Shown here one piece after another: positions 2,831 to 41,643 of a stretch of 64,000 bases of DNA. A program made the translations under genes and the position numbers. Numbering within the stretch: the stretch's first letter is position 1; every line of letters starts with the position of its first letter. The notes below the pieces were generated by a model. It ran no database searches and was not told the DNA's origin. It saw nothing but the letters and a program-made list of their open reading frames with translations. The DNA is from Spirochaetia bacterium (lineage in GTDB: Bacteria; Spirochaetota; Spirochaetia; UBA9216): positions 96,001-160,000 of the forward strand of contig OZ223264.1 of the NCBI GenBank assembly GCA_965140585.1. Direction: 5' to 3'.

Positions 2831-2836
2831 GTCTCT

Positions 2837-6572: not shown

Positions 6573-6574
6573 AT

Positions 6575-8502: not shown

Positions 8503-9563
8503 TTTGCAGCCTCCTCGCGTTCAGCCTGACGTCTTGTAATTCGGTACTTCCACTGTCCAAGGAAGGCTTCTGCTGTGATCAGAAGTATTATCAGAGACTG
8601 GATTACGTTCACAAGCTCTGCCGGTACATCGCCCATCAGGTTCAGCACCTGTCCTCCGACGCGGAGATAGGCCAGAAGCAGTGATGAAAAAATAATCAGG
8701 ATTGGATGGCTTCGGCCGATGATGGCAACGATAATTCCGTCCCATCCGTAGCCGGGCTGGTTCTGCCACAGAAAGCGTCCGTGTATACCCATTACCTCGC
8801 TCATTCCCCCGATTCCCGAAATGAAACCGAGCAGGACCTGTGAGAGGATAATTACCTTTACAATGTTGATACCGCCGAAGCGGGCGAAGTTTTTATTGTA
8901 GCCTGTCTGCCTGAACTCGTAACCGCTTGTTGTATGATAGAGAAAGTAATAGGCGACCAGGGCGATAATCAGTGCCAGAATAATGCCGAAGTGCATTCTT
9001 GTTCCCGGCAGAAACTGTGCAAAAAGTGCTGTTTCCGGAAGCCTCAGTGATACCAGGAACCCTGCATCCTTGTCCCGGAAGTGAGAGTTGATCAGATATA
9101 GACTGAAGTAAAATGCGACGTAGTTCATCATAAGCGATGATACAAGTTCGCTGGCGTTCCATTTGGCCTTCAGGATACCCGGAATCAGGCTCCATACAGC
9201 ACCCGTTACACCGGCTACTATTAGAACCAGAGGTATGTGAAGAACTGCGGGCATGCTGGTTGAAACAGCAAAGGCTGTTCCGACTGCCGCTGCAATTATA
9301 AATGAACCTTCGGCGCCCAAGTTGAACTGGTCGGCCTGAAATGATACTGCAATGGCAACACCGCAGAATATCATCGGTGCGGCCATTTCAAATATATTGA
9401 AAAGTCTTCCCTTGGAAGCTATCGGTCCGGTAAAGAAGTACTTCAGCGACTCTCCGGGATATTCACTTATCAGGTAGATCATCAGTATTGTTACAACCAC
9501 ACCGATGATAAGGGCGATCATTACGCGGATAAGCGTAAAATATTTAAGAATCCATTTTTCCAC
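8499..9563 (-). CDS. Nucleoside ABC transporter permease
   Basis: Multi-TM; FNLGAEG and GYGWDGIIVA motifs. Confidence 0.9.
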   Translation of the reverse strand: MEKWILKYFTLIRVMIALIIGVVVTILMIYLISEYPGESLKYFFTGPIASKGRLFNIFEMAAPMIFCGVAIAVSFQADQFNLGAEGSFIIAAAVGTAFAVSTSMPAVLHIPLVLIVAGVTGAVWSLIPGILKAKWNASELVSSLMMNYVAFYFSLYLINSHFRDKDAGFLVSLRLPETALFAQFLPGTRMHFGIILALIIALVAYYFLYHTTSGYEFRQTGYNKNFARFGGINIVKVIILSQVLLGFISGIGGMSEVMGIHGRFLWQNQPGYGWDGIIVAIIGRSHPILIIFSSLLLAYLRVGGQVLNLMGDVPAELVNVIQSLIILLITAEAFLGQWKYRITRRQAEREEAAK

Positions 9564-11094: not shown

Positions 11095-11151
11095 ATTTCC
11101 TCTTTTATTAGGAAGTAAGACCCCTTAAATGATAGTGGGGTACGCTGATGT

Positions 11152-11185
11152 AAAAGAAACCCGGAACAGGCTGCGCTGTTCCGGG
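11152..11185 (-). terminator. Hairpin with U-tract downstream of the BMP gene (terminator or mRNA-stabilising stem)
   Basis: CCCGGAACAG...CTGTTCCGGG 10-bp stem followed by TTTCTTTT on the minus strand. Confidence 0.7.
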
Positions 11186-11202
11186 CATATGTATTAGTTA
11201 AA

Positions 11203-12279
11203 TTAGAAAGCGGATGAAACCTTGATTTCTCCGGCAAGAATTTTCTGTTCAATTTCATCAATCTTTGCCTGGAATTCTTTGGGTACTACCTTGAGGTAGT
11301 TTTCATTTTTGGCAATACCTACACCGCCTTCGGCAATACCGAGGTATTCAGCTTCGCCGTAAACAAGTGTTCCTTCCTGATGCATCTTGATTCCTCTGTA
11401 AAGAGAGTTACCAACATTTTTAAGCATTGAAGTGATGATATTTGCAGCCTTTTCAGGATCGCTTTCTGCAAAAAGTGCATACTGGTCAGAATCTACACCG
11501 AAGGTGTATTTGCTTCTTTCTTTTGCAGCATCGAGTCCGCCAAGTCCGGTTTCTCCTGCTACGTTAAAAGAAATATCTGCGCCCTGGTCAAAGAATGCGA
11601 GGGTAAGCTCTTTACCCTTTGCAGGGTCATTCCATGCTCCTGCATATGCAACTTTAACGTCGATTGCAGGGTCAATGTAGGCAGCGCCTTCCATGTATCC
11701 GATTTTGAAGTCGTTGATAACGTCAATATCCATACCGCCGAGGAAGCCGATTGTCTTGTCTTTATTTGCTTTAGGCATCGCTGATTCAGTAATCATTGCT
11801 CCAAGAGCTCCTACGAGGAAAGATGCCTCATTCTGCATATACATGATTGAGTATACGTTGCCGAGGTTTCCGTTGCTATAGGTTACTGTTGTGTCGTATG
11901 TAAAAAACTTTTTGTCCGGATGCTGGGGAGCCAGCTTTTCAAGAATTTCCTGAGTCTGCCAGGTTCCTGCAATGATTATGTCCCAGTCACCTTCACAAAG
12001 CTGAGTAATATCCGGTTCCCATCTTGAAGCGTCGTAACCGCCCTCAATTACCTTAGCTCTGATTCCGAGATCCTTTTCAGCTCTTTTTACACCGTCTGAT
12101 GCAGAGTCAAAAAAGGATTTGTCGCCGAGTGTTCCGTTTAGATACAGAACAACCTTAAGCTGTTCAGCTTTTGCTGAGCTGTCTGTTGAAGCGCCTTCCT
12201 GACTTCCGCCTGCGAATACGGTTGTGCCTGCGAATACCATCAGGATGCAGATGAGTACTGAAATGATAGTTTTTTTCAT
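11203..12279 (-). CDS. BMP/PnrA family nucleoside-binding protein
   Basis: LGDKSFFDS, IGFLGGMD, WNDPAKGKE, GVDSDQ and TSMLKNV motifs. Start moved to the MKKTII ATG (12279), downstream of GGAGG. Confidence 0.92.
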   Translation of the reverse strand: MKKTIISVLICILMVFAGTTVFAGGSQEGASTDSSAKAEQLKVVLYLNGTLGDKSFFDSASDGVKRAEKDLGIRAKVIEGGYDASRWEPDITQLCEGDWDIIIAGTWQTQEILEKLAPQHPDKKFFTYDTTVTYSNGNLGNVYSIMYMQNEASFLVGALGAMITESAMPKANKDKTIGFLGGMDIDVINDFKIGYMEGAAYIDPAIDVKVAYAGAWNDPAKGKELTLAFFDQGADISFNVAGETGLGGLDAAKERSKYTFGVDSDQYALFAESDPEKAANIITSMLKNVGNSLYRGIKMHQEGTLVYGEAEYLGIAEGGVGIAKNENYLKVVPKEFQAKIDEIEQKILAGEIKVSSAF

Positions 12280-12426
12280 TCCATAATCCTCCAATTTAAG
12301 TATTACTTCAATTGTAGTTTGCTTCATACTTTATGTAAACCAAAAAGTTGTTTATAAATTTTGTGCTCATGTTTGAATCGCGGGAGATCGATTTTATTTA
12401 TATAAAAGTAAATTTGAGGAGAAAAA

Positions 12427-14098: not shown

Positions 14099-15289
14099 AT
14101 GGCAAAAAAGGAACTTGGTCCGAATAAACTGCTTATCATAACCGCTGCGGTTTTTCTCGCAGTGTATTTTATACCCTTTGACACTGCCCGTGTATCCGGT
14201 GCAATTCAGGAAGCCTTTCTGATGCTCAGTGACTACGCAAGGGAACATGTGCTGCTCTGTCTTGTTCCAGCGATGTTTATTGCAGGCGCAATCACTGTAT
14301 TTCTGAATCAGCAGTCGGTTATCAGATTTCTCGGGCCGAAAGCTCCAAAGGCTGTTGCCTACAGTGTGGCTTCGGTCTCAGGTGCGATCCTCGCTGTCTG
14401 CTCCTGTACAGTACTGCCCCTGTTTAAAGGAATATATAAAAAGGGTGCAGGACTTGGTCCGGCCGTCAGCTTTCTGTATTCGGGACCTGCAATAAATATT
14501 CTGGCAATAGTAATGTCCTATAAGGTTTTCGGATGGCAGATTGGACTTGCAAGAATGGCAGGGGCCGTTCTTTTTGCTGTTATTATAGGGCTTGTAATGC
14601 AGTTTCTCTTCAGAAAGGATGAAGAGAAAAGAATGGGTGATGAACGGATGTTCCAATATCAGGATTCCGGTGAAGAAAGAACTCTTCCCCAGATGATGCT
14701 TTATATGTTTTCAATGATCGGTATTCTTGTATTTGTTAACTGGGCGAACTCAAAGGGCGGAAGCAGAATCTGGGATATGATTTACAGCTATAAATATTTT
14801 ATCACTGCAGCCTTTGCTCTTATTCTTGTTTTTTCGCTTGTCCGATGGTTTTCAAAGATGGAACTGAAAATATGGCTGACTGCTACAAGAGACTTTGCCC
14901 TGCAGATTCTTCCCTATCTCTTCTTCGGTGTTCTGGTAGCCGGTTTTCTTTTAGGCAGGCCGGGTCATGATGCCCTTATTCCGACCGACTGGGTTGCATC
15001 GCTGGTCGGAGGCAATTCTGTTTTTGCAAATCTAATCGCATCGGTGGCGGGAGCTTTTATGTATTTTGCGACCCTGACCGAAGTTCCTATTCTTCAGGGC
15101 CTGATTGGTGCGGGAATGGGGCAGGGCCCGGCACTCGCACTGCTGCTTGCCGGACCGTCTTTATCGCTCCCTTCAATGCTGGTTATCGGCGGTGAGCTCG
15201 GGTTCAAAAAGACTGCCGTTTATGTTCTGCTTGTTGTTATACTTTCAACTGCTGCCGGTTTAATTTTCGGCTCGATAACAGGCATATGA
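14099..15289 (+). CDS. DUF318/ArsP-family permease
   Basis: AVCSCTVLPLF, FLYSGPAIN, FMYFATLTEVPI and LLAGPSLSLPSM motifs; multi-TM. Confidence 0.9.
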   Translation: MAKKELGPNKLLIITAAVFLAVYFIPFDTARVSGAIQEAFLMLSDYAREHVLLCLVPAMFIAGAITVFLNQQSVIRFLGPKAPKAVAYSVASVSGAILAVCSCTVLPLFKGIYKKGAGLGPAVSFLYSGPAINILAIVMSYKVFGWQIGLARMAGAVLFAVIIGLVMQFLFRKDEEKRMGDERMFQYQDSGEERTLPQMMLYMFSMIGILVFVNWANSKGGSRIWDMIYSYKYFITAAFALILVFSLVRWFSKMELKIWLTATRDFALQILPYLFFGVLVAGFLLGRPGHDALIPTDWVASLVGGNSVFANLIASVAGAFMYFATLTEVPILQGLIGAGMGQGPALALLLAGPSLSLPSMLVIGGELGFKKTAVYVLLVVILSTAAGLIFGSITGI

Positions 15290-15295
15290 TTCGTT

Positions 15296-15321
15296 TGAAT
15301 AAGAGGTTTACCTCTTATTCA
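15296..15321. terminator. Hairpin between the convergent permease and CMD genes
   Basis: TGAATAAGAGG-TTTA-CCTCTTATTCA perfect stem. Confidence 0.65.
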
Positions 15322-15346
15322 GACATAAAAAACTTGTTTTTTATGT

Positions 15347-15667
15347 CTACTCGCAGCCGCAGCTTACATTTCCTTTCAGTATTTCCTTCCAGTCGCCTAA
15401 TACATCATGGGTCCAGCAGTCGTCAGCGCCGGCTGCTTCTCTCATGACGAGTGCAAGGATATAAGAAAGCTCTTTAACTGTAGCTCCTGCATCCATAGCA
15501 CCCTTGAAGTGCTTAAGAACACATGGTTTTGATCTTGCCTTGATTGAAAGGGCAAAACATATGAACTGGTATGTCTTCTCATCTATGGTTCGTTTCTCCC
15601 GGTAAAGGGCATCCATCTCATCAAGCTGTCCGGCAAATTCCGGAAAAAATTCTTCAAGCATCCGCAT
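15347..15667 (-). CDS. Carboxymuconolactone decarboxylase/AhpD-like protein
   Basis: IDEKTYQFICFALS...PCVLKHFKGAMDAGAT..E pattern; AAGGAG RBS; C-terminal SCGC. Confidence 0.8.
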   Translation of the reverse strand: MRMLEEFFPEFAGQLDEMDALYREKRTIDEKTYQFICFALSIKARSKPCVLKHFKGAMDAGATVKELSYILALVMREAAGADDCWTHDVLGDWKEILKGNVSCGCE

Positions 15668-15786
15668 TTTGTTACTCCTTGACTGATTTTATAATGTATA
15701 TATCCGTTTGGATACCGGAATTAATTAAGTTTGAATTCAGCAGCAGGATATTATAAAATTCCTGTAGTTGGATTTATACGGGTTTT

Positions 15787-17103
15787 TTGCAGATGAGAAA
15801 AATCTCTTTCAGAGATAATATAATATTTCAGTATACCGCTGTTTCGTTTTTTACCACCTTGATAATTGCAGTTCTTCTGGTTTTGCTGATGATGGGACGA
15901 GTACAGAGTCAGCTGATACGATCACATGGGCAGTTCTACCGAGAGTTTATAAATGCAATCTCTGAAAATTACCGGGAAATACTTCCTGTTTTCAATGGAC
16001 TTAACCCTGTGGGAACAGATGAGCATACAGAAGCAGAACATGAGCATGAGGCTGCAGATGTCTGGGAACACTTCAGGCAGGATTTACAACAGTATCCTTA
16101 TATCGAAAAACTGCTCCTTATCAATACATTTAACGAAACAGTCTGGATTTATCCGGAAACTTCCGATTTCAAAAATATTAATCCCACAGTCAGAATCGGT
16201 GATACAAATCCTGGCGGTATTAATTATAAAATAAATGACGAATCTTCCGACCTGGTTGTTTCTTATTTTCTTCCGGTAAGGGACGGGACAGAGCTTGTTG
16301 GAATGGCCGAAATTATCATCAGAAACAACAATCTCAGAGAGGCCATAAATGAAAGCCGTCTAACTTTTGCAGGCTATATTTTTGCCGGCGGATCTGTTTT
16401 TTACTTAAGTGTATTTTTGCTTTTCCTCAGGCTTTATCTGAAGCAGAAATCTGCACTGGACAGGCTTGAAAAAAGTCAGAAACTCACTATTCAGACCATG
16501 TCTCTTCTTGCTGAACTAAAAGACAATGACACAAGTGAGCATGTTCAGCGTACCAGTAAATACTGCCGGGTTCTGGCAGAGGAGCTGGCGAAGGACAGCA
16601 GATACCGGGGTTATATAGATGAACATTATATAAAAGATCTGGAACGTTCAGCACCGCTCCATGATATAGGCAAAGTCGGTATACCGGAAAATATTCTGCT
16701 GAAACCGGGGCGACTGACAGAAGACGAGTTTTCAGTAATAAAAAAACACCCGTTGCTTGGGGCGAATGTTTTAAAACAGGTAATGAATTCGGTTGAGTTT
16801 CGTTCATATTTTGAGATTGCCTATCAGATTGTTCTGTCACACCATGAAAACTGGGACGGTTCCGGTTATCCGCAAGCGTTGAGTGGTGAAGATATTCCCC
16901 TGTCTGCAAGAATAATGTCCATAGCTGATGTCTATGATGCCCTTACTACCGAGCGACCGTATAAGGAAGCTTTTTCACATGAAAAGGCGGTTGAAATAAT
17001 TCTGGAGGGCAGGGGCAGCAAATTTGATCCGGCTCTTGTGGATCATTTTCTAAATATAGAAAAAGAATTTAAAATGATCTCAGATGTTAAATTTGCCCCG
17101 TAG
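15787..17103 (+). CDS. Membrane-bound HD-GYP c-di-GMP phosphodiesterase
   Basis: Two TMs flank an extracytoplasmic domain; LHDIGK, HHENWDGSGYP and ADVYDALT motifs. The start may be ATG 15793. Confidence 0.92.
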   Translation: MQMRKISFRDNIIFQYTAVSFFTTLIIAVLLVLLMMGRVQSQLIRSHGQFYREFINAISENYREILPVFNGLNPVGTDEHTEAEHEHEAADVWEHFRQDLQQYPYIEKLLLINTFNETVWIYPETSDFKNINPTVRIGDTNPGGINYKINDESSDLVVSYFLPVRDGTELVGMAEIIIRNNNLREAINESRLTFAGYIFAGGSVFYLSVFLLFLRLYLKQKSALDRLEKSQKLTIQTMSLLAELKDNDTSEHVQRTSKYCRVLAEELAKDSRYRGYIDEHYIKDLERSAPLHDIGKVGIPENILLKPGRLTEDEFSVIKKHPLLGANVLKQVMNSVEFRSYFEIAYQIVLSHHENWDGSGYPQALSGEDIPLSARIMSIADVYDALTTERPYKEAFSHEKAVEIILEGRGSKFDPALVDHFLNIEKEFKMISDVKFAP

Positions 17104-17175
17104 CCATGATACTATAATCCAAAAGCAGTTGTTAATATATTTTGATAGACTCTTATAATCACTCTGGAGGTAGGT

Positions 17176-18801
17176 GTGCTGAAACTATTAATTGCTGATG
17201 ATGAGCACCGTGTTTGCCAGCTTATAGAAAAGATAATTCCCTGGGAGGAGTATGACGTTAAGCTTACGGGTGTAGCCTATAATGGAATAGATGCATTTGA
17301 GCTGATTAAAGAGCTTCAGCCCGACATTGTGATTACTGATATCCGTATGCCGGGGTATGACGGCATCAGCTTAATTGAAAAAACAAGAAAACTTGATTCA
17401 GATATCAGTTTTATAATTGTCAGCGGATACCGTGATTTTGAATATGCACAGAAAGCTTTGAAATTCGGTGCTGAAGATTATCTTCTAAAGCCGATTTCCG
17501 GAGATGAATTAAAAAGGATAGTTCAGAAGGTTATTGGAAAGAAGTTAAAAAATGCTGAGAAAGAGGATTATGAAAGCCGGCTGAAATTCGAACTGAGCCG
17601 AAACAGGGAAACGCTTCGTAGGGCTCTTGCAAAAGAATTTTTAGACAGAGATTTTAACCTCGGGATGAATGATTTTTTAAATCTTCAGGAGTATTACAAT
17701 ATCAGTTTTAAAAGTTTATATTTTCAAACTGTAATTATCCAGCTGGATAATCAGGATGAAAATATTCAATTCGATAATTCTGAAGCTGAAAATACAATGC
17801 TTGAAAAAACAGAGAGCATGATATCCTCGATAATTGAAGGGGCAGTCTGTGAATATTTTTCAGTGATCCAGCGCAGAAGTATTATTTATATTTTGAACAC
17901 TTTTGATACGGAAGGCCTTAATCATAGCGATTTGGAACTTCTGCTGGAGAATTCCTCCCAGAAAATTGCAGAATATGGAAAGTGGACAGCAACAATATGT
18001 GTCGGCCGGACAGTTGAAAAAATTGAGAATCTGAACTTTAGCTTTAGAGAAGCTCTTTTTGCGCGGAAAGATCGAATAATACAGGGCACTGGAAAAATCA
18101 TCAGGTTCAGGGCGCCTATTCATGCAGATGATGACTCCCGTCGCTTCAATTATCCGGTTTTATATGAAAAAATGAAGAGAATATTTGAATCTAATGAAAC
18201 TGAGCAGGTCAAAGCACTGTTTTCGGAACTTCTTGTTTTTCCGCATATCTCCGGTAGAATAAAAAACCCTGAAATTATCAATAATTTCTTCGTCAAACTT
18301 TCTGAAATGTTTGGAGAGCTTTTAATTACCTTTGGTTCAGAAGGTGAAGAAGCCGCTGAACTAAAGAGAAAGACAGAGTTTATAATAGAGATATCGGAAT
18401 CAGTGCCGGTTATCCAGTCAAGGCTATCCGTCCTGTTCTCATCATATCTATCAAGGGCTGCTGCATCGAAAAAGCTGCAAAACTATAAGCCGGTACGGAT
18501 TGCCAAGGAATATATTGAAAAAAACTTTGCTGAAAATATAGAACTCAGTACGGTAGCCGGAAAATCCGGCTTGAACCCTGTATACTTCAGTACTCTTTTT
18601 AAAAAAGAAACAGGTACAAATTTCAAGGAATATCTCCAGCATGTTAGAATTGAGAGGGCAAAGCAGATGCTGGTTTCAGGCAATGACACTATAGTTGCGA
18701 TAAGTGAGAGTGTAGGTTACAAGGATGTCCGTTATTTCAGCAGAATCTTCACACGGACTGTAGGAATAAAACCGAATATGTACAGAAAGATTTATGGATA
18801 A
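17176..18801 (+). CDS. YesN-type response regulator (REC + AraC HTH)
   Basis: IADDE, TDIRMPG and YLLKP receiver motifs; C-terminal YFSTLFKKETG...GYKDVRYFSRIF; GGAGG RBS with GTG start. Confidence 0.93.
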   Translation: MLKLLIADDEHRVCQLIEKIIPWEEYDVKLTGVAYNGIDAFELIKELQPDIVITDIRMPGYDGISLIEKTRKLDSDISFIIVSGYRDFEYAQKALKFGAEDYLLKPISGDELKRIVQKVIGKKLKNAEKEDYESRLKFELSRNRETLRRALAKEFLDRDFNLGMNDFLNLQEYYNISFKSLYFQTVIIQLDNQDENIQFDNSEAENTMLEKTESMISSIIEGAVCEYFSVIQRRSIIYILNTFDTEGLNHSDLELLLENSSQKIAEYGKWTATICVGRTVEKIENLNFSFREALFARKDRIIQGTGKIIRFRAPIHADDDSRRFNYPVLYEKMKRIFESNETEQVKALFSELLVFPHISGRIKNPEIINNFFVKLSEMFGELLITFGSEGEEAAELKRKTEFIIEISESVPVIQSRLSVLFSSYLSRAAASKKLQNYKPVRIAKEYIEKNFAENIELSTVAGKSGLNPVYFSTLFKKETGTNFKEYLQHVRIERAKQMLVSGNDTIVAISESVGYKDVRYFSRIFTRTVGIKPNMYRKIYG

Positions 18802-19822
18802 CAGGAAAACTCCAATCAGCAAGTCTTTAGCGGTTCTACTTAAACTGCATATAATTTTATTATCGCTAATTGCCCTTGCTTCCTTCTCTCTTCAGTTTGT
18901 GGAAATCCGGCTGGTTCCGGAAGGGCTGATTTCTGTTTTATTCCTGGTCTTCTTTTTTGCAGCGGTATTGTTTTCACTATATAAAAAAGTATACAGACCG
19001 ATTCACCGCATGGAAGATGCGATGGATCTTCTGTCTCAGGGAGATAATGATATTTTTGAAAGTGTAAAACTTGAGCCGGATAACGCGGTACTTTCCATGC
19101 ATTTTTCAGAGCTTATCCAGCTGCTTAAGGATTCAATAGACCGTGAGTATACATCCGACTATCTGAAAAAGGAGGCGGAGCTTAATGCCCTTCAGAGTCA
19201 AATAAATCCACATTTTCTTTATAATGTACTGGACGCAATTCGCGGACATGCTTTGAATGAGAGTGTTCCTGAGATTGCCGAGATGACTGAAGCCTTATCT
19301 AAACTGTTCCGGTACAGTGTCAGTCACTGGGAAAGTGAGGTTACTCTTGAAAGAGAGCTGATAAATGTCCGCAGCTATTTCAAAATTCAGCAATACCGTT
19401 TTAACAACAGGTTTGATTTAAGAGTTTTATTTGATGCCGATGAAAGCACTGCTTTATCCTGTAGAATGCCTAAATTGACGCTTCAGCCTGTAATAGAAAA
19501 TGCAATTTACCATGGTCTTGAAATGAAAATGGATAGGGGCATGGTTACAATCAGGATAAAAGTTTCGGGAAAGCTTCTGCTAATCGAAGTTTCTGATGAT
19601 GGTGTCGGAGTTGAGCAGGATGTGCTTGATTCAATCAATAGTTCTTTTGTCGACTGGAGGGCTGTAAAAGTTTATGAGAGAGAAAGTTCCGGCACCGGAA
19701 TTGCCCTTACAAATGTAAACAGCAGAATTAAGATGATGTACGGAGAAGATTACGGGCTGTACATGTATAGTACAAAGGGGTACGGCACTACAATAGAAAT
19801 ACTTCTTCCATTTATAGAATAG
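18794..19822 (+). CDS. YesM/LytS-type histidine kinase with minimal extracellular loop
   Basis: ALQSQINPHFLYN, LQPVIENAIYHG, DDGVG and GIALTNV motifs; two TMs separated by about 10 aa. Confidence 0.92.
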   Translation: MDNRKTPISKSLAVLLKLHIILLSLIALASFSLQFVEIRLVPEGLISVLFLVFFFAAVLFSLYKKVYRPIHRMEDAMDLLSQGDNDIFESVKLEPDNAVLSMHFSELIQLLKDSIDREYTSDYLKKEAELNALQSQINPHFLYNVLDAIRGHALNESVPEIAEMTEALSKLFRYSVSHWESEVTLERELINVRSYFKIQQYRFNNRFDLRVLFDADESTALSCRMPKLTLQPVIENAIYHGLEMKMDRGMVTIRIKVSGKLLLIEVSDDGVGVEQDVLDSINSSFVDWRAVKVYERESSGTGIALTNVNSRIKMMYGEDYGLYMYSTKGYGTTIEILLPFIE

Positions 19823-19844
19823 ACCTGACGGGGGAAATGAAACT

Positions 19845-21296
19845 ATGGGTGAATTACTCAGGATTAGATCACTTACAACTTCAAACAACACCGAATCGGG
19901 TTTAAACGGCTTTCGGCTGCAGATATTTGATCATGAAATTGCAGGTTTGATAGGATTGAACGGTTCAGGTAAAAGTCTGCTCGTTGATGTTCTTTCCGGT
20001 GAGAGGCAGGTTAGGAAAGGTGTTCTAAAAATAGGTGATAAAAGATGGAGGCTGGATACTCAGCGCCTGTCAAGGACGCTTCTTGAAGAAAACGGTGTAT
20101 ATATTGTGAAGAATGAAACCCGTCTGATAAAAAATCTCAATCTATCCGAGAATATGTCCATCTCGACTATTAAGAAGCTCAGAAGCATGTTGAAAAATCC
20201 GCTTAAGCAGGAGCCTTTGCTGCGTGCGCTGCTGGAAGAGTTTGCTTCTGATCTTGATATAAGTACAAAGGGTGATAATCTTCCGTTGTCTGCACACTGG
20301 CGAATCGGAATTATAAAAGCATACATGGAGGGGGCTAAATTAATAATACTCGATCGTATTCTGGAGTATTGCTCCGCTCCAGAAAATGAACAGATAATGA
20401 ATCTTGTACGGACCTTCCGTAGCAAGGGGACGGCTTTTCTGGTTACATATAATAAAACCGCCCGTTTTTTAAAAGATTTTGACAGGCTTGCAATTGTCAG
20501 AAATGGAAGGCTGGCAGCCGTTGTGCACAGGGAGGACTATGATCCGGAATCTCTTGCCGGACTAATGACAGGTCAAGCTTATTCTGAAACAACTGCAGTT
20601 AGAGCCGGTTCTGAGATACCCGGAAAAAAGAAACTTTTAGAGATAAAAGATCTCAATACAGAAAATTGTATGGCTGAATTAAGTCTGAATCTCTTCACCG
20701 ATGAAATCCTGGGTGTTTACGATCCCGTGCAGGAAAACTCAGAAACTCTTTTAAAGGTCTTAACGGGAAAATGTGAAATTAAAAGTGGGCAGATTCTCAT
20801 AGACGGAAAATCTGTAAGATTTGAAAGTGCACATCATGCTCTGAAATACGGAGTAGGAATAGTGTCTGAAATACTTTTTGACAGGCTTTTTTTTGAAGAC
20901 CTTTCAGCAGGGGATAATATTATGTTTTCTGCTGCGCGTCGGGCTTCAAGGTTTTTAGGGTTTATCTCATCACAGGTAGAACAGTATTTCTGCAAAAAGC
21001 TTCCTCCTGAAATTGGAATTTCTGCAGAATGTAATGACAAGCCTGTCAGATATGTAGACAGGCATATGCAGTTTGTCCTTGCCCTTCATATGAAGATACT
21101 AAGCGGTGCGCAGATTCTAATCCTGGAAAATCCGCTTCGAAGTGCCGATCTCATTACCAGGGAACTTGTTTATCACAATATTGCAGCCCAGACCAAGAAA
21201 GGTCTTGGAATAATTTTTATCTCCTCTGATTATTCAGAGCTCGACGGCTTTTGTGACAGAATTATACAGTTTGAACAAAAAGGAGTTTTTCAGTGA
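19845..21296 (+). CDS. Degenerate tandem-NBD sugar ABC ATPase-like protein
   Basis: RbsA-like layout with Walker A GLNGSGKS. Walker B reads IILDRILE and LILENPL, the H-switch reads VTYNK, and no LSGGQ signature is present. Confidence 0.85.
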   Translation: MGELLRIRSLTTSNNTESGLNGFRLQIFDHEIAGLIGLNGSGKSLLVDVLSGERQVRKGVLKIGDKRWRLDTQRLSRTLLEENGVYIVKNETRLIKNLNLSENMSISTIKKLRSMLKNPLKQEPLLRALLEEFASDLDISTKGDNLPLSAHWRIGIIKAYMEGAKLIILDRILEYCSAPENEQIMNLVRTFRSKGTAFLVTYNKTARFLKDFDRLAIVRNGRLAAVVHREDYDPESLAGLMTGQAYSETTAVRAGSEIPGKKKLLEIKDLNTENCMAELSLNLFTDEILGVYDPVQENSETLLKVLTGKCEIKSGQILIDGKSVRFESAHHALKYGVGIVSEILFDRLFFEDLSAGDNIMFSAARRASRFLGFISSQVEQYFCKKLPPEIGISAECNDKPVRYVDRHMQFVLALHMKILSGAQILILENPLRSADLITRELVYHNIAAQTKKGLGIIFISSDYSELDGFCDRIIQFEQKGVFQ

Positions 21297-22258
21297 AAAA
21301 CACTGCTCTGAAGCATCTATTGAGAGATCATCTTAATCTGTGGTTTATACTCGGTATAATTACAATCGAGTTGATTTTTTTAAAAATTGCAATTCCGAGT
21401 TTCATCTCTTTGAACAGCATTATCGGTTTTGGCCGTCAGTCTGCTATAATTTCAGTTCTGGCTATAGGTATGTGTATAATTCTAATAAGCGGAGGGTTCG
21501 ATCTTTCTGTGGGCGCAATCGTCTCACTGCTTGGAATGGTTGCAGCACTTTTATTTATCCGGTTCAATATTCCTCTGCTTCCGGTCTGTATTATTATTAT
21601 CGTTCTTGGCGGAAGCCTTGGTTTTCTTAACGGTTCGGTTTGTGCAAAAGTCCGGATTCATCCTTTCATACTTACTACAGCCCTGTCTGTTGTTTACAGG
21701 GGAACTGCGAACATTGTTAATAACGGAATGCCCATGTACGGACTTCCTGCAAGTCTCCTTAAACTGGATCGATATGCATTGCTTGGAGTTCCGCTCTCAC
21801 TGATAATACTGATTCTTTGTTTTGTTTTCGGTGCTTATATACTGAGGAAAACATATCTTGGAAAGTATATTTATGCGATCGGGCTGGACGAAAAAACAGC
21901 TGAATACGCAGGTATTGATTCAAAACTCATAAAAAAGATTGTATACAGCATTTCAGGAATGTTCTATGGAATAGCTTCAATTCTGCTTCTTACAAAGATA
22001 GGCTCAGCTCAGCCCAATGCTATGACCGGTATAGAACTCGATTTGCTTGTTGCCGCAGCTATAGGCGGGATAAGTTTCAAAGGCGGCAGGGGCCGGCTCC
22101 TGAATATAATACTTGGAGTGCTGCTAATGGAGATCTTCGCAGATACGTTGATTATCTTTAATGTTGGTGAATATTACAGAAGTATTTTCAAGGGGCTGGT
22201 TTTGCTGGCGGCCCTGTTTATGGATGGTGTAATTCGAACCGGAAAAGAAAAATCATAA
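21293..22258 (+). CDS. Sugar ABC permease (RbsC-like)
   Basis: SGGFDLSVG, GKYIYAIG and IGGISFKGGRG motifs. Confidence 0.9.
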   Translation: MKNTALKHLLRDHLNLWFILGIITIELIFLKIAIPSFISLNSIIGFGRQSAIISVLAIGMCIILISGGFDLSVGAIVSLLGMVAALLFIRFNIPLLPVCIIIIVLGGSLGFLNGSVCAKVRIHPFILTTALSVVYRGTANIVNNGMPMYGLPASLLKLDRYALLGVPLSLIILILCFVFGAYILRKTYLGKYIYAIGLDEKTAEYAGIDSKLIKKIVYSISGMFYGIASILLLTKIGSAQPNAMTGIELDLLVAAAIGGISFKGGRGRLLNIILGVLLMEIFADTLIIFNVGEYYRSIFKGLVLLAALFMDGVIRTGKEKS

Positions 22259-22329
22259 TTTTGTCTGAATTTTATCAACATAAATCTTAAATTTGTCTCA
22301 TTGCGTGCTGAATTCGGCAGTGTTATCCT
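22257..22329 (+). promoter_or_regulatory. Promoter TTGCGT-N17-TATCCT (extended -10) with upstream direct repeats
   Basis: -35 at 22301-22306; TGnTATCCT at 22321-22329; AAwTTTGTCT repeats at 22257 and 22289. Confidence 0.5.
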
Positions 22330-22366
22330 TAATTATCAGTAATAAACCACAAAGGGGTATCAAACA

Positions 22367-23893
22367 GTGCCGTCTCCGGTTCTAGAAATGAATAATATTA
22401 CTAAAAGTTTCTCGGGAGTAAAGGTCCTTGAAGATGTTCAGCTCACGATAAATCCAGGCGAAGTACATGCACTTATGGGTGAAAACGGTGCCGGAAAATC
22501 TACACTGATGAACATTCTTATGGGAATACATTCTGCAGACAGCGGACAGATTCTTCTCAACGGTAAAGTTGTTGTTAACAGAAGTCCCAAAGAAGCCATG
22601 GATAACGGAATATCCATGATTCATCAGGAACTTCACCCAATTCAGGATATGGACGTATCTGAGAATGTTTTTCTTGGAAGAGAGATCAGAAATGGAACGG
22701 AAGGTTTTTTCAGTCTTGTAAACAGAAATAAAATGAGACATGAGACCGCGAAACTTTTTGAGAATGCAGGTATCGATATTAATCCATCATCATTGATGCG
22801 GGATCTTAGTGTTGCTCAATGTCAGCTTGTTGAAATAATCAAGTCTGTAGCACTGTCATCCAAGATAATAATTATGGATGAACCTACATCCGCAATCACT
22901 GAAAAAGAAGTCGATTTGCTGTTCAACCAGATTAGAATGCTGAAGGAAAGCGGTACCGCAGTTATATATATTTCACATAAGATGGATGAAATATTCAGGG
23001 TTGCTGACCGGATTTCTGTTCTTAGAGACGGGAAATATATCGGCAGCGATAAAACAGAAAATCTTGATGAGCAGAAACTGATAAAGATGATGGTCGGCAG
23101 AGAGCTTACAGAGGTTTTTCCAAAAACAGAGGCCGAAATTGGCGAGATTATTCTTGAAGCAAAAAACTACAGATGGGGCAGAAAAGTCAGAGATGTAAGT
23201 TTTAATCTCCGGCGCGGAGAAATACTGGGTATTGCCGGTCTGGTCGGAGCAGGAAGAAGTGAGCTGGTTGAAACCATCTTCGGGGTGCATCCGGACGGAA
23301 GCGGTGATTTATATTTACACGGTGAAAAGATGTTCATTCGCAGGACAAGTGATGCCATCCGGCACCGGATTGCTCTGGTGACAGAAGACCGTAAAAAGAC
23401 GGGTCTTAATCTTATTGCATCCATTAAAGATAATATTACTCTGGTTTCGCTGGACCAGCTTTTTACAAAGGGTGTTATCAACAGGAAAAAAGAATCCAAA
23501 ATCGCAGATGAAAGCATTAAAAAGCTAAAGGTAAAAGCCCATTCAAAGTTTGATGCAACCAGCTCTTTGAGCGGCGGAAATCAGCAGAAAGTTGTTATAG
23601 CAAAATGGCTTTTATCAGAGCCTGATATTATTATCATGGACGAGCCGACCAGGGGTATCGATGTAGGCGCCAAAAGAGAGATTTATCTGCTTCTTGGTGA
23701 GCTTGTAAAAGCCGGGAAGGCGGTATTGATGATTTCATCCGAGATTCCTGAAATCATGGGAGTTGCAGACAGAATCCTTGTTATGGCTGAAGGCCGTATT
23801 ACCGGGGAGTTGCAAAGAGGAGAATTCTCCCAGGAAAAGATTATGCACTATGCTTCACAATTCAGAAAAGGAAATAATGATGAAGAAAATTAA
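22367..23893 (+). CDS. Sugar ABC ATP-binding protein (RbsA/MglA family), intact
   Basis: GENGAGKST, IMDEPTS, ISHK, LSGGNQQK and MDEPTRGID motifs. Confidence 0.95.
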   Translation: MPSPVLEMNNITKSFSGVKVLEDVQLTINPGEVHALMGENGAGKSTLMNILMGIHSADSGQILLNGKVVVNRSPKEAMDNGISMIHQELHPIQDMDVSENVFLGREIRNGTEGFFSLVNRNKMRHETAKLFENAGIDINPSSLMRDLSVAQCQLVEIIKSVALSSKIIIMDEPTSAITEKEVDLLFNQIRMLKESGTAVIYISHKMDEIFRVADRISVLRDGKYIGSDKTENLDEQKLIKMMVGRELTEVFPKTEAEIGEIILEAKNYRWGRKVRDVSFNLRRGEILGIAGLVGAGRSELVETIFGVHPDGSGDLYLHGEKMFIRRTSDAIRHRIALVTEDRKKTGLNLIASIKDNITLVSLDQLFTKGVINRKKESKIADESIKKLKVKAHSKFDATSSLSGGNQQKVVIAKWLLSEPDIIIMDEPTRGIDVGAKREIYLLLGELVKAGKAVLMISSEIPEIMGVADRILVMAEGRITGELQRGEFSQEKIMHYASQFRKGNNDEEN

Positions 23894-24842
23894 GGATATT
23901 ATGACACTTCGCTCAATGCGGGAACTTGGGATAGTATTTGTATTTGCTGCCATCCTGATTGTTCTGATGATTTTATCACCAAATGCATTCGCAAGACCTG
24001 CCAATCTTATAAATATAATCAAGCAGGCTTCCATTAATGGAATCCTCGCAATGGGTATGATGTTTGTAATTATAGGCGGTGACATTGATCTTTCAGTAGG
24101 ATCCATTGTTGCGCTAACCGGAGTTGTTTCAGCCAGTTTTGCACACCCCGGAGAGTATCCTCTGATCGTTCCGTTTATACTGGCCATTGTGATAGGTATG
24201 TTTGTAGGCTGGTTAAACGGTGTAGGGGTTTCTCATGGAAAAATACCTTCATTCATTGTAACTCTGGGTATGATGACAATAGTCCGTGGCGTTGCCCTTA
24301 TCATTGCAAAGGGAGCCCCTGTATTCGGAGTAACTGATGAATATGAGTTTATTGCCGGGGGCTTTCTTTTTGACCGGGTGCCTCTGCTTGTTGTTTACTT
24401 TGCTGTAATTACAGCAATAAGTGCCTATATTTTGAATAAAACCGTATTCGGGCGAAGGGTTTACGCGATAGGTGGTAATGATATTTCTGCGGCTTTTTCC
24501 GGAATAAATGTAAATAAAATTCGTATTACCATATTCATGATCTCAGGAATGCTTGCAGGGTTTGCCGGTCTGCTTCTGGCTTCAAGAACAGTATCTGGTA
24601 ATCCGACTGCAGGTCAGTCATATGAGCTTGACGCGATTGCAGCCGTAATTATCGGTGGAGTGAGCATGTCCGGAGGATCCGGAAAGTGGTACGGAACTGT
24701 AATAGGCGCACTGTTAATCGCTGTTATCGGTAATGGACTGGATATTCTGAATGTCTCGTCGCATTATCAGCTTGTCATCAAGGGGGCAATCATAATCTTT
24801 GCTGTACTTCTTGATGTTAAAGGTAAGGGAAAAACGGCTTAA
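23877..24842 (+). CDS. Sugar ABC permease (RbsC-like)
   Basis: GDIDLSVG, FGRRVYAIGGN and YELDAIAAVIIGG motifs. Start reassigned to the MMKK ATG at 23877. Confidence 0.92.
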   Translation: MMKKIKDIMTLRSMRELGIVFVFAAILIVLMILSPNAFARPANLINIIKQASINGILAMGMMFVIIGGDIDLSVGSIVALTGVVSASFAHPGEYPLIVPFILAIVIGMFVGWLNGVGVSHGKIPSFIVTLGMMTIVRGVALIIAKGAPVFGVTDEYEFIAGGFLFDRVPLLVVYFAVITAISAYILNKTVFGRRVYAIGGNDISAAFSGINVNKIRITIFMISGMLAGFAGLLLASRTVSGNPTAGQSYELDAIAAVIIGGVSMSGGSGKWYGTVIGALLIAVIGNGLDILNVSSHYQLVIKGAIIIFAVLLDVKGKGKTA

Positions 24843-24886
24843 GCCGGTTTAATAAAAATGGAATCTCATAATTTAGGAGGATTTTT

Positions 24887-25819
24887 ATGAGAAAACTGTT
24901 AACAATGGTTTTTACTCTCATGCTGGTCATGTCACTTTCTGTCTTTGCTTCAGGAAATTCAGAATCTGATGCAGCCAAACCTGCAAAATATGCACTTATG
25001 ATGAGTCATATGACAAACGCCTTTACAATGGAGCTGTCAAACGCTGTTAAAGAAAAAGCAGCTGAACTCGGTGTTGAACTTACCGTTTTTGATGGTGGGC
25101 AGGATGTTTCAAAGCAGATCAGCCAGGTTGAATCTGCTGTAAATCAGGGCTATGCAGGTATTCTTATTGAACCTGTATCAGTTGATGGAATTAAGCCTGC
25201 AGCAGAAACTGCCAAAAAGGCAGGTATTCCGCTGGTTACGGTTAACCAGAAAATTACACATCAGGAACTCACCAGTGCCTTTGTTGGTGCCAACCCTGTT
25301 GAAGGCGGAGAGCTTGAAATGAGAACCGCTGCAAATGATATCGGCGGATCAGGCAAGGTTGCCTTTCTGCTGGGGCCCCTGGGTTCTGATGCCCAGATTG
25401 GTAGAACCGAAGGATATTATAACGTACTCAAAGAGTTCCCTGGAATTGAAGTAGTATATGAACAGACTGCAAACTGGAGAACAGATGAAGCTCTGAAGCT
25501 TGTTGAAAACTGGCTTCAGACCGGAGTTGAACTTAAAGCTATTGTAGCAAACAATGACGGTATGGCTCTTGGTGCTCTGAAGGCTGTTGAAGATGCAAAG
25601 ATGCTTGATAAGATCAAGATTTACGGTCTTGATGCTACCCCTGATGCTCTTGCTGCTGTAAGAGAAGGCCGACTTTCTGCAACAATTTCTCAGAGCACTT
25701 CTGATCAGGGAATGGTTGCCATGGAAACAATTGTAAAGATTGTTAACGGAGAATCCGTACCTGCAGAAATAATTGTAGGACATACACTTATCAACAGTTC
25801 AAATATTGCTGATTTTTAA
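24887..25819 (+). CDS. Sugar ABC substrate-binding protein (RbsB-like)
   Basis: AGGAGG RBS; signal peptide; ANNDGMALGA and GLDATPDAL motifs. Confidence 0.92.
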   Translation: MRKLLTMVFTLMLVMSLSVFASGNSESDAAKPAKYALMMSHMTNAFTMELSNAVKEKAAELGVELTVFDGGQDVSKQISQVESAVNQGYAGILIEPVSVDGIKPAAETAKKAGIPLVTVNQKITHQELTSAFVGANPVEGGELEMRTAANDIGGSGKVAFLLGPLGSDAQIGRTEGYYNVLKEFPGIEVVYEQTANWRTDEALKLVENWLQTGVELKAIVANNDGMALGALKAVEDAKMLDKIKIYGLDATPDALAAVREGRLSATISQSTSDQGMVAMETIVKIVNGESVPAEIIVGHTLINSSNIADF

Positions 25820-25846
25820 TCTGATAAAATATTTAAATATCAGGAG

Positions 25847-25873
25847 GGACCGCAGAATGCGGTCCTTTTTTTT
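25847..25873 (+). terminator. Rho-independent terminator
   Basis: GGACCGCA-GAA-TGCGGTCC followed by T8. Confidence 0.85.
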
Positions 25874-26988
25874 CAGTAAGTTTTCTTCAGCCAGGAGAGG
25901 TATCCATCGCTGAGTTCTTCGGAAGTTCTTCCTGTGACCTGTTCGAATGCTGAATGAAGTACCGGCTGCAGAATTGATTCCGAATCTTCAGATTTAGCCC
26001 GATCGAAAAAATCTTTACCTGCACAGGCTTCAAGTATTTTACGGTGTACATCATCCCCCCAGGTTTCCGCCATATATTTCACTATCAGCGCTGAAATACC
26101 GTAAAAACATGATATTTCCTTTTCGTCTGTCATGGACGCCATATCAATACTCTCAAGCTTTGCGATATTCCAGGCTGCATCAGAAGGTGAAAGCCTGCCG
26201 CTTTTTATAAAATCACCTCCGAACACAGCGCCGTTGCCGTAGTGTACGGCGAGGCCTTCCGCATACCAGCCTGCCAGATAGTTTCTGCTTATTTTCAGTG
26301 TAATGTGATGAACAAGTTCATGCCTTATTGTTCCCTCATAGGGAGGAATGGTCGGATGGCCGGTCCAGATTTTCAGTGATTCATTTGCCTCTCCCCATGC
26401 CGTGAACTGCCTTTCGATTATAGGGTATGTTCTCTGCCTCAGCAGTTCTCTGTCGGTATACAGCTTGACCGGAAAGTTCTCATCAACACCTGTACCGAAC
26501 AGGTCCGACAATGCCTCATTTGAATTTATAAGGTATCTTTCAAATGACTGAAGATTCCTTTCATTTTCCCGGTAGAAGATTCTGAATCCGTCAACATCAT
26601 GCCGCAGGAAATCCAGATCGCAGTCCAGCCACTTGCCGTCCTGATAGCTGTACACAATGTTATAATTAAAGTCAAAGTTTTCACCGGCATATATGTGCTT
26701 CTGATTGATGTGAACAAGTACAGTTCTTTGGTCAATCTGATCGATTCCGGTAATATTAAAAGAAAGGTTTTGAAAATCATTATTTGCCATATACCAGAAC
26801 CAGGCATAGCTTTCATTACGGTAGTAGCTGTCTTCGGTGCTTAGCGTGGACATGTATAAATCTGAATCGGAGGTATTGATTGCGGTAATTTTATTATTCC
26901 ATGATTCAGAAAGCTTTTCTTCCACCGAAACACAGGAAAAAAATATTGCCGTCATAAAAACGATGAGTGTAAAAATTTTCTTTTTCAT
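25873..26988 (-). CDS. Lipoprotein with gluzincin/peptidase MA-like domain
   Basis: Lipobox FFSC; HELVH (HExxH) and WYAEGLA motifs. Confidence 0.8.
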   Translation of the reverse strand: MKKKIFTLIVFMTAIFFSCVSVEEKLSESWNNKITAINTSDSDLYMSTLSTEDSYYRNESYAWFWYMANNDFQNLSFNITGIDQIDQRTVLVHINQKHIYAGENFDFNYNIVYSYQDGKWLDCDLDFLRHDVDGFRIFYRENERNLQSFERYLINSNEALSDLFGTGVDENFPVKLYTDRELLRQRTYPIIERQFTAWGEANESLKIWTGHPTIPPYEGTIRHELVHHITLKISRNYLAGWYAEGLAVHYGNGAVFGGDFIKSGRLSPSDAAWNIAKLESIDMASMTDEKEISCFYGISALIVKYMAETWGDDVHRKILEACAGKDFFDRAKSEDSESILQPVLHSAFEQVTGRTSEELSDGYLSWLKKTY

Positions 26989-27038
26989 AATGGAATAATT
27001 ATAACATGATATAATTATTTGAAAGGAGAGTAGTTGTT

Positions 27039-27314
27039 TTGATTGAGATTAATGAGCTGCTTAGTATTATCATTGACATCGTAAGTTTTTCGTTTCTGCT
27101 TATTGCCGGTTCCAAGGTGAATTTTCAGCGTTTTAAGCTCATTATTCTTGCAGTTATTTTTGTTGTCCTCAGCCATACAGCAACCGTTGTGGAGGGCTTT
27201 TTACTACCAAATTTTTTTAATGTCCTTGAACACTTGTTTTTATTATCCGCGATGATAACTCTGCTTTTTGCTGTCTCAAGAATTGCCTTTAAAAGTGAAT
27301 GTTCCGGTGCCTGA
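27039..27314 (+). CDS. Small 3-TM membrane protein
   Basis: AAGGAG RBS with TTG start; three hydrophobic segments; overlaps the downstream kinase start. Confidence 0.7.
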   Translation: MIEINELLSIIIDIVSFSFLLIAGSKVNFQRFKLIILAVIFVVLSHTATVVEGFLLPNFFNVLEHLFLLSAMITLLFAVSRIAFKSECSGA

Positions 27315-28257
27315 TATTATCATAATAATTAATACAGCAGGTATTCTTGCCGGTTTTGCAGGTATATTTCTGATTATAAAAGCGATTATCAGGAAGCGAC
27401 TGGTCTGGCAGAGCGGTATTTTTCTTCTCATTCCCGTCCTGGTTCTCATCTTTGTATTTACGGCAAATGTTTTCGAATATGAGCACCTCTATATCAATAT
27501 GGATCAGTATGAAGAGTATCTTGAACTGCTGATAATTCCTGCTCTTCTTATTTTTCTGTATTCACTTGTGACAGAAGAGGTGCTGAAAGAAAAAGTGAAA
27601 CGTGAGCAGGAACTTGAGAGAATGGTCAAGGAGCGAAACCTGTTCATTCAGGAACTGCAGCACCGTATCAAAAATAATCTACAGCTGATAAGCAGTTTTA
27701 TTAATCTTCAGATTGGTAATTCTGACAAGCGTGAAATTATGGATGCACTGGGAGCTGCAGTAAATAGGATTGATTCACTTGGTGTAGTGCAGAATGTACT
27801 TTACGACATAGATGATTTCTCAAATATCAGGATAGAATCATGTTTCGGTGAGGTTATAAGAAATCTTGTCGGATATTTTGAAATTGATACCAGAGAGACG
27901 CTTGTTGAGCTTTCTGATAGGGGTATTACAGCCGGGATGGATACAGTTGTGTCATGCTGCGTAATAATTAATGAGCTGGTTAGCAATATATTCAGGCATG
28001 TTAAAAGCCATGTTGAGAGATGTGTAATTAAAATTGATGTAGATCAGAGTTCTGACGGTATGCTGATTATCGGCCTGTCAGATAACGGCCCCGGCTTAAG
28101 TGAGAATATCAGCTTTGAGAAGACTCCGGGTCTTGGACTTTTAATAGTAGATGTTGTGACTCAGCAGATAGGCGGAACTGTAGAGATACTCAGGGGCAGC
28201 GGGACTGAATTCCGTTTTAAAATCCCTGCAGAAACAAAAAAAGTAATTGAAAAATAA
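27307..28257 (+). CDS. Membrane sensor histidine kinase (HisKA_2 type)
   Basis: ELQHRIKNNLQ, INELVSN, DNGPG and GLGL motifs. The probable start is GTG 27307, in frame with the ORF from 27268. Confidence 0.88.
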   Translation: MPDIIIIINTAGILAGFAGIFLIIKAIIRKRLVWQSGIFLLIPVLVLIFVFTANVFEYEHLYINMDQYEEYLELLIIPALLIFLYSLVTEEVLKEKVKREQELERMVKERNLFIQELQHRIKNNLQLISSFINLQIGNSDKREIMDALGAAVNRIDSLGVVQNVLYDIDDFSNIRIESCFGEVIRNLVGYFEIDTRETLVELSDRGITAGMDTVVSCCVIINELVSNIFRHVKSHVERCVIKIDVDQSSDGMLIIGLSDNGPGLSENISFEKTPGLGLLIVDVVTQQIGGTVEILRGSGTEFRFKIPAETKKVIEK

Positions 28258-41537: not shown

Positions 41538-41567
41538 AAATATAAGATAGTTTTTCAGGTATAAAAT

Positions 41568-41609
41568 AAAGCCCGGAAGGTTTTACGGAACTTTCCGGGC
41601 TTTTTATTT
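41568..41609 (+). terminator. Rho-independent terminator
   Basis: AAAGCCCGGAAG...CTTTCCGGGCTTTTTATTT. Confidence 0.8.
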
Positions 41610-41643
41610 GTTATGAAGCAGTTCATTAACTATAATTTTAATA

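Follow-up and report, generated by a model that had tools for sequence, protein, structure and literature searches.

We analysed a 64,000-nucleotide stretch of the contig OZ223264.1 from a Spirochaetia bacterium (hereafter the window; all positions are those of this stretch) and describe a forward-strand locus at 17176–25819, in which the genes of a two-component system are followed by a degenerate pair of sugar-type ATP-binding cassette (ABC) transporter genes and then by an intact sugar importer. The first gene (17176–18801, 541 amino acids (aa)) encodes a YesN-like response regulator (RR) with a REC domain, a long middle region and an AraC-type helix-turn-helix domain, and the second (18794–19822, 342 aa) encodes a histidine kinase (HK) of the YesM/LytS family and the intramembrane type, with His_kinase (PF06580) and HATPase_c domains. 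The third product (19845–21296, 483 aa) is a homologue of the CUT2-type ABC ATPases with two nucleotide-binding domains (NBDs) in tandem and is a pseudo-ATPase judging from its sequence; the fourth (21293–22258, 321 aa) is an RbsC/AraH-like CUT2 membrane component with a BPD_transp_2 domain. We call these two the upstream ATPase and the upstream permease. Behind a spacer of 108 nt (22259–22366), a candidate RR-dependent promoter region, lies a complete importer set on the same strand: a CUT2 ABC ATPase with canonical motifs throughout (22367–23893, 508 aa), an intact CUT2 permease (open reading frame from a TTG at 23763 to 24842, with the probable true start at an ATG at ~23877) and an RbsB/AlsB-like periplasmic sugar-binding protein (SBP; Peripla_BP_4, 24887–25819).

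The first four genes are tightly packed. The reading frames of the RR and the HK overlap by 8 nt, the upstream ATPase begins 22 nt after the HK, and the frame of the upstream permease overlaps that of the upstream ATPase by 4 nt at the stop codon of the latter. The best explanation is that the RR, the HK, the upstream ATPase and the upstream permease form one signalling operon. An earlier reading of this DNA (the original prediction) had proposed a coupled unit of these four genes ahead of an intact ATPase-permease-SBP operon, and the order and coordinates of the genes match it.

Motif columns of the ATPases were read from an alignment of 161 sequences. In the first half of the protein, the intact ATPase has GENGAGKST as Walker A, MIHQE in the Q-loop, IIIMDEPTS as Walker B and YISHK at the H-switch, whereas the upstream ATPase has GLNGSGKSL, IVKNE (Gln replaced by Asn), LIILDRILE (the catalytic Glu replaced by Arg, the Asp kept) and VTYNK (His replaced by Asn), respectively. 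In the second half, Walker A is GLVGAGRSE in the intact ATPase and DPVQENSET in the upstream one, the signature LSGGNQQK versus VDRHMQFV, and Walker B IIIMDEPTRG versus ILILENPLRS. The motifs quoted for this protein in the original prediction (Walker A GLNGSGKS, LDRILE, VTYN, VDRHMQFV and LENPLRS) were all present, and the loss of the second Walker A and the exchange of the Q-loop Gln for Asn add to that list. Judged by these motifs, both composite ATP sites of the upstream ATPase are without catalytic residues, the first P-loop is the only motif that survives, and the protein holds no catalytically competent ATP site.

The upstream ATPase nevertheless has the layout of a CUT2 subunit, being a single chain of the ~500-aa type with two NBDs in tandem, encoded next to a BPD_transp_2 permease. 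Its residues 5–478 align with positions 8–474 of the 504-position AraG profile, which gave the best NCBIfam score (171.8 bits, cut-off 689); it also aligns with the RbsA and XylG profiles, far under their cut-offs, and reaches no curated CUT2 threshold. Pfam detects the first NBD only, the second half scoring 19.6 bits against a cut-off of 25. The AlphaFold2 (AF2) model of the protein (pLDDT 92.1, pTM 0.88) is a well-folded tandem NBD, and the structures it resembles most (TM 0.73–0.76) are DppD and OppD, each a fused subunit with tandem NBDs, from the DppABCD and OppABCD importers of mycobacteria. A sequence search of the PDB with the upstream and the intact ATPase returned ABCA-type chains only.

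In the downstream operon, the intact ATPase is matched twice by Pfam ABC_tran (180.4 bits) and scores 514–580 bits against the NCBIfam models of XylG, MglA, AraG and RbsA, with the best score, 579.8, for the xylose ATPase model (cut-off 699). The intact permease scores 151.7 bits against Pfam BPD_transp_2, 261 against RbsC and 266 against GguB of NCBIfam. The SBP scores 213 bits against Peripla_BP_4 and has a Sec-type signal peptide with no lipobox Cys; its nearest NCBIfam models are RbsB (154.9 bits) and AlsB (133.4 bits), both under cut-off. The upstream permease, in which BPD_transp_2 covers residues 45–308, is 34% identical to the downstream permease, scores 172–181 bits against the RbsC and AraH models of NCBIfam and has no large loop. 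Its relatives form a group of their own at 49–66% identity, set off by a score gap from the ordinary RbsC-like permeases, and the cytoplasmic coupling segment, YAIGLDEKTAEY(S/A)GI, is conserved among them. No solved CUT2 permease was found in the PDB by sequence.

We then consider the kinase, in which His_kinase spans residues 128–207 and HATPase_c residues 230–340. An alignment with 40 relatives shows no variation at H140, N236, D268, G270, G272 and G302. In the RR, Pfam detects Response_reg at 5–116, HTH_18 at 461–538 and HTH_AraC, and its translation keeps the acidic pocket (DD at 8–9), the acceptor Asp in ITDIRMPG and the LLKP motif; as far as these positions tell, the catalytic residues of both the HK and the RR are intact. 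The N-terminus of the HK is a single hydrophobic stretch, residues 8–66. In the AF2 model (pLDDT 78.8), helices 12–35 and 42–82 are joined by a 6-residue turn, and the HK has two transmembrane helices with an outside loop of 6–11 aa. Residues 1–130 match no Pfam family, and no extracytoplasmic or HAMP domain was recognised there, in agreement with the original prediction of two transmembrane helices, a loop of about 10 aa and no ligand-binding domain. Since its membrane part is a two-helix hairpin only, the HK should be unable to bind a ligand outside the cell.

The short hairpin was common to all 40 aligned relatives of the HK, each with one hydrophobic stretch of 50–65 aa and an H-box at residues 121–153, and 107 of the best 120 among 4,771 HK matches (the query counted) were no longer than 400 aa. 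Short hairpin kinases of this kind therefore make up a class and are no accident. The sequence of the hairpin itself was poorly conserved among the 40 relatives. When a plasmid collection was searched with the HK, only long YesM kinases were found.

One explanation to weigh is that the upstream ATPase and permease are copies of the neighbouring transporter in the course of decay, pseudogenes too young to be broken yet. Among 5.8 billion proteins, a word-indexed search listed 13 close relatives of the upstream ATPase from the Spirochaetales, Sediminispirochaeta included, with 43–53% identity and 360–546 bits, the next match being at 144 bits. All 13 are open reading frames; 11 are full length (474–499 aa) and two (435 and 423 aa) have a shorter N-terminus. 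The first Walker B is LDR in 11 of them and LDG in the other two, the H-switch His is Asn and the second Walker B is LENP in all 13, and the second Walker A and the LSGG signature are found in none. The Q-loop Gln is likewise absent from all 13, the column being Asn in 11 of 14 sequences when the upstream ATPase is counted. Because the 13 close relatives share the same substitutions, the degeneration of the upstream ATPase is not decay. Two further relatives, at 38% and 32% identity, share the degenerate motifs, and intact catalytic motifs, which the original prediction named as a ground for its refutation, occur in neither this pair nor the 13.

The conservation of the first P-loop needs more careful wording. 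GLNGSGK is invariant in a 12-member alignment of the family, and the claim that the upstream ATPase keeps its Walker A stands for the protein of the window. It does not stand for the family, in which the Ser/Thr that completes the motif is replaced in five of the 11 relatives covering the site. Nucleotide binding by the upstream ATPase is not assured, because Asn or Arg takes this position in those five.

Searched exhaustively with HMMER, 1.84 billion cluster representatives yielded 261 matches at E ≤1e-30, and 149 of the best 150 were aligned (P0024 was left out); removal of three sequences shorter than 400 aa left 146. We called a sequence fully degenerate when it had no Asp-Glu in the first Walker B and neither a second Walker A, a second signature nor a second Walker B. 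By this definition 57 of the best 146 full-length representatives are fully degenerate, 61 are canonical and 28 are mixed, and a strict first Walker A is kept in 19 of the 57. A tree of 90 sequences (24 canonical, 52 degenerate and 14 close) was inferred by maximum likelihood. In it, the upstream ATPase lies inside a clade of 14 with support 100/100, and the 24 canonical ATPases, with the intact ATPase of the window among them, are set off by a branch with support 100/99; the bootstrap had yet to converge fully, and long-branch attraction may play a part. FastTree and a quick search tree agreed with this result.

The upstream ATPase is thus not a recent copy of its neighbour, because it belongs to a separate 100/100 clade across the 100/99 branch from the canonical set. 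That the ATPases and the permeases of the two operons are paralogous pairs, as originally proposed, applies only to distant paralogues: the two ATPases are 23% identical over their full length (BLASTP), the two permeases 34%, and the upstream ATPase belongs to an old degenerate clade. Recent-duplicate decay was rejected on the family-wide motifs and the tree position, and the confident AF2 model also speaks against it. The faster evolution of the upstream ATPase compared with its neighbours (see below) is what decay would have in its favour, and we regard this explanation as extremely improbable.

Some other observations were made during these searches. Among the degenerate representatives P0247–P0375, D-x-E-N-K-x-N recurs in place of the second Walker A and V-L-x-C-x-N-P in place of the second Walker B, which suggests, as a reading of the alignment, several old and separately conserved pseudo-ATPase lineages. 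The nearest entries in the ESM Atlas were Bacillota clusters of 178, 663 and 96 members with ABC_tran only, which we take as a lead only. A scan of genome contigs with generic P-loop patterns gave at least 56 loci, of which the 56 listed held only distant ABC ATPases in a tblastn check, and the plasmid collection yielded canonical ATPases only, whether it was searched with the upstream ATPase (up to 28% identity) or with the distant degenerate P0248 (up to 33%).

The linkage of the HK, the upstream ATPase and the upstream permease among relatives was judged from contigs of equal size, which is an indirect sign, and from the order of accessions. For every one of the 13 close ATPase relatives, the contig is equal in nucleotide length to one that holds a close relative of the short kinase (9/13), of the upstream permease (9/13) or of both (5/13). 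One contig of 3,660 nt carries the kinase, the degenerate ATPase and the permease, which together need 3,447 nt. In all three genomes in which the accessions of all three were looked up, they are consecutive and in the order HK, ATPase, permease: MBI9103985, MBI9103986 and MBI9103987; MDC7225943, MDC7225942 and MDC7225941; and NDL68691, NDL68692 and NDL68693 of Anaerotalea alkaliphila, a member of the Bacillota. The HK and the ATPase of Sediminispirochaeta smaragdinae (ADK81185 and ADK81186) are consecutive as well. Of the synteny sought by the original prediction, the order HK, ATPase, permease is kept in Spirochaetota and in one Bacillota member. Among 20 more distant degenerate clusters, at least seven share a contig size with a short kinase, of which up to about one may be a chance coincidence by a rough estimate; 7/20 is a lower bound because the kinase matches compared were the best 120 of 4,771.

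The three proteins have also diverged together. Over nine loci, the mean pairwise identity is 0.58 for the HK, 0.45 for the upstream ATPase and 0.57 for the upstream permease, and Kimura distances over the 36 pairs of these loci correlate between the ATPase and the HK (r 0.79) and between the ATPase and the permease (r 0.88). With full-length relatives at 43–53% identity and distances that track those of the HK and the permease, the earlier suggestion that the ATPase is retained holds. One could still suppose that adjacency reflects co-regulation only, with the HK sensing a membrane or cytoplasmic signal alone and the dead ABC pair having an unrelated role; the poor conservation of the hairpin sequence would fit this. 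The recurrence of this gene order, its frames overlapping or nearly so, in Spirochaetota and Bacillota argues otherwise, as do the distant clusters that share contig sizes with short kinases, and we regard co-regulation without partnership as very unlikely.

The interpretation that we favour, and that we think somewhat more probable than its negation, is that the dead, importer-like pair of the upstream ATPase and permease is the input device, a sugar receptor, of the intramembrane HK, and that the RR then induces the intact transporter. It is the simplest reading because the HK cannot see outside the cell and is constantly accompanied by a membrane protein shaped like an importer, together with a dead motor. 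The upstream permease, presumably dimeric like other CUT2 permeases, would assemble with the upstream ATPase into a complex that has the shape of an ABC importer and does not hydrolyse ATP; having lost ATP hydrolysis, such a complex would be unable to pump. A sugar-loaded SBP, most likely the RbsB-like one of the neighbouring operon, would dock on the upstream permease, and the resulting conformational change would pass sideways in the membrane to the HK hairpin. The HK would thereby be switched on and autophosphorylate at H140, and the phosphorylated AraC-type RR would activate the intact ATPase-permease-SBP operon. We infer the contact of the upstream permease and ATPase with the HK, the use of an SBP, the identity of the sugar and the target of the RR.

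Several observations weigh against this interpretation. No SBP-like gene lies within 17176–22258, that is, in the sensor operon, and the use of the neighbouring operon's SBP is for this reason a guess. Where the residue after the P-loop Lys is covered (11 relatives), it is Ser in six, Asn in four and Arg in one, which makes it doubtful that nucleotide binding plays a role. The distances of the upstream ATPase are ~1.6 times those of the HK and ~1.5 times those of the upstream permease over the nine loci, which means faster evolution. The linkage of the relatives is partly read from contig sizes, with the indirectness and the chance coincidence mentioned above. Finally, a consensus scan of the spacer, 22259–22366, found neither a sigma-70-like promoter nor a terminator.

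This last result does not bear out the separate promoter that had been placed at 22301, since the scan gave no sigma-70-like site in the spacer, and because neither promoter nor terminator was detected between the upstream permease and the intact ATPase, read-through and hence a single long operon are possible. The spacer region contains a direct repeat, A(A/T)TTTGTCT(C/G)A, with copies at 22258 and 22290, 32 bp apart (span 22258–22300), and TTTGTCT cores at 22260 and 22292. There are two exact copies and no other in the 64-kb window, the pattern having been taken from these copies. We regard the TTTGTCT repeat as a candidate regulator site on its sequence; it carries no weight statistically, its own two copies having supplied the pattern that was searched. 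Ahead of the RR gene, the same scan picked out a sigma-70-like promoter candidate, TTAATA-16-TATAAT (17132–17159, + strand, 10/12 matches), which is a consensus match only, such sites being no commoner in the region than in shuffled sequence. An Rfam search of 15000–27500 found no family.

Two other explanations accept the partnership of the HK with the dead ABC pair. In the first, the pair is an accessory of the kinase and not a sugar receptor: it holds the HK off or stabilises it, as LiaF does for LiaS, or it reports a cytoplasmic cue through the upstream ATPase, such as a nucleotide or sugar phosphate at the surviving P-loop, with the external sugar detected by another route, if at all. Linkage and co-divergence indicate partnership and not what is sensed, the invariant GLNGSGK would suit a cytoplasmic ligand, and the sensor operon lacks an SBP gene. 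On the other hand, the pair retains a whole membrane component of the importer kind, its coupling segment conserved, which is beyond the needs of a mere inhibitor, the operon directly precedes a sugar importer with an SBP, and the Walker A Ser/Thr is not conserved. We consider an accessory role of this kind unlikely.

In the second, the upstream permease still takes part in transport, either by forming a passive channel or by joining the downstream permease and the intact ATPase as a second membrane subunit; the HK would then sense flux as in Bce systems and the upstream ATPase would be a structural plug. Some CUT2 systems pair two different permeases, for example LsrCD and YtfT/YjfF, and the upstream permease is far less degenerate than its ATPase, as its identity to the downstream permease and its RbsC/AraH scores indicate. 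Yet the downstream operon is complete by itself, the upstream permease is translationally coupled to the upstream ATPase and not to the intact one, and short contigs carry the HK, the degenerate ATPase and the permease and nothing more. With both ATP sites dead, the sensor complex would moreover have no energy source. Taken together, a remaining transport function seems quite unlikely to us.

The proposed receptor can be compared with several known systems. According to the passages cited here, the intramembrane kinase of Bce modules, which has two helices and hardly any loop outside, receives its input from an ABC transporter (PMC8774646, PMC7828314, PMC10314905), and in BraDE-BraSR-VraDE of S. 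aureus and VirAB-VirRS-AnrAB of Listeria the sensing transporter is distinct from the working one, which is induced (PMC8774646, PMC7828314). The locus described here resembles them in its short-loop intramembrane kinase beside ABC components and in its separate working transporter. It differs in having a PF06580 kinase and an AraC-type regulator, whereas Bce systems use other kinase and regulator families. Bce signalling needs ATP hydrolysis by the BceA-type ATPase; an active ATPase and an antimicrobial peptide signal there stand against two dead ATP sites and a tandem NBD here. The membrane components differ as well: the BceB-type permease has an extracellular loop of ~200–250 aa (PMC7828314) and is of the BceB/FtsX, exporter-like type with a large outside domain, whereas the upstream permease is a CUT2 protein of 321 aa. 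By this comparison the window system lies outside the Bce family, though it would work alike.

A second group is closer in its signalling proteins. XylFII-LytS-YesN of C. beijerinckii and CuaD-CuaS-CuaR of R. cellulolyticum consist of an AraC-type RR, a PF06580 kinase and a transporter-derived third component, and they are described as controlling an adjacent ABC sugar importer (PMC3656788, PMC8050422); in such SBP-HK-RR sensors a second binding protein docks on the extracytoplasmic domain of the kinase, by the account in PMC8050422. The regulator with REC and AraC domains and the PF06580 kinase are shared by our locus, in which the intact importer begins 108 nt downstream. Here, in contrast, the HK has no ectodomain and the sensor operon no SBP, and a dead ATPase with a permease stands in the position of the third component. 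A locus on the Clostridium estertheticum plasmid pCF009-b (4392–13716), which encodes an RR, a 587-aa kinase, an SBP-like protein, two galactose SBPs, an ATPase and MglC, provides a classical three-component contrast: it has a long kinase and an SBP-like gene where the window has an HK of 342 aa.

Non-transporting transporter homologues are used as ligand receptors in UhpC-UhpB and in yeast Snf3/Rgt2 and Ssy1. UhpC, Snf3/Rgt2 and Ssy1 are single-chain secondary carriers, whereas the proposed receptor is the multi-subunit homologue of a binding-protein-dependent ABC importer with a pseudo-ATPase. In CbrA and CrbS, an SLC5 transporter module supplies the input of the histidine kinase, as reported in the cited passages (PMC9100948, PMC7096432); there the SLC5 domain is fused to the kinase, and CbrA still transports, whereas the window has separate genes of the ABC class. 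A short YesM kinase combined with a dead ATPase-permease pair of the CUT2 type was not found described in open full text, subscription papers being outside this search.

More tentatively, and with rather less confidence than even chances would give, we suggest that the intramembrane YesM-type kinases of Bacillota and Spirochaetota may have an old and widespread class of dedicated ligand receptors in the degenerate CUT2 pseudo-importers. These would read the docking of a loaded SBP as an equilibrium switch without ATP turnover, membrane and NBD subunits of an importer having been recruited as the input module to replace the ectodomain of the kinase or a second SBP, and the operon in the window would be one member.

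Among the other genes of the window, a 438-aa HD_5 (HD-GYP-like) protein (15787–17103, +), whose N-terminal 236 aa have no Pfam match, ends 72 nt before the RR gene. At the other end, an open reading frame of 371 aa without a Pfam family (25873–26988, −) opposes the SBP gene, its sole match being a weak one to the NCBIfam flagellinolysin HExxH model (18.2 bits, cut-off 205). At 40536–43362 (+), an ABC_sub_bind/Peripla_BP_4 gene directly precedes that of a 572-aa HisKA_2 kinase, a possible binding-protein-kinase sensor pair. A bacterial alpha-2-macroglobulin is followed by a PBP1C-type protein (Transgly, Transpeptidase, BiPBP_C) at 134–5089 (+), which is the usual pairing, and the region 5166–12327 (−) encodes an inosine-uridine nucleoside hydrolase and an amidohydrolase beside an ABC importer of the nucleoside type, which consists of a Bmp/PnrA binding protein, two permeases and a tandem ATPase.

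Where kinases without a sensor domain obtain their input is an open question across many two-component systems, and at this locus a candidate device is encoded next door to the kinase. If the interpretation is correct, a binding-protein-dependent ABC importer has been made a receptor by killing its motor, which would be the importer counterpart of the Bce/Bra logic and a bacterial ABC analogue of transporter-like sensors such as UhpC and Snf3/Rgt2. Many database entries named "sugar ABC transporter ATP-binding protein" that are unable to be ATPases would then gain a function, as may be the case for 57 of the 146 best representatives, and such annotation of pseudo-ATPases bears on the prediction of sugar uptake from gut and sediment genomes. 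Transporter-dependent kinase sensing of this kind appears to be widespread.

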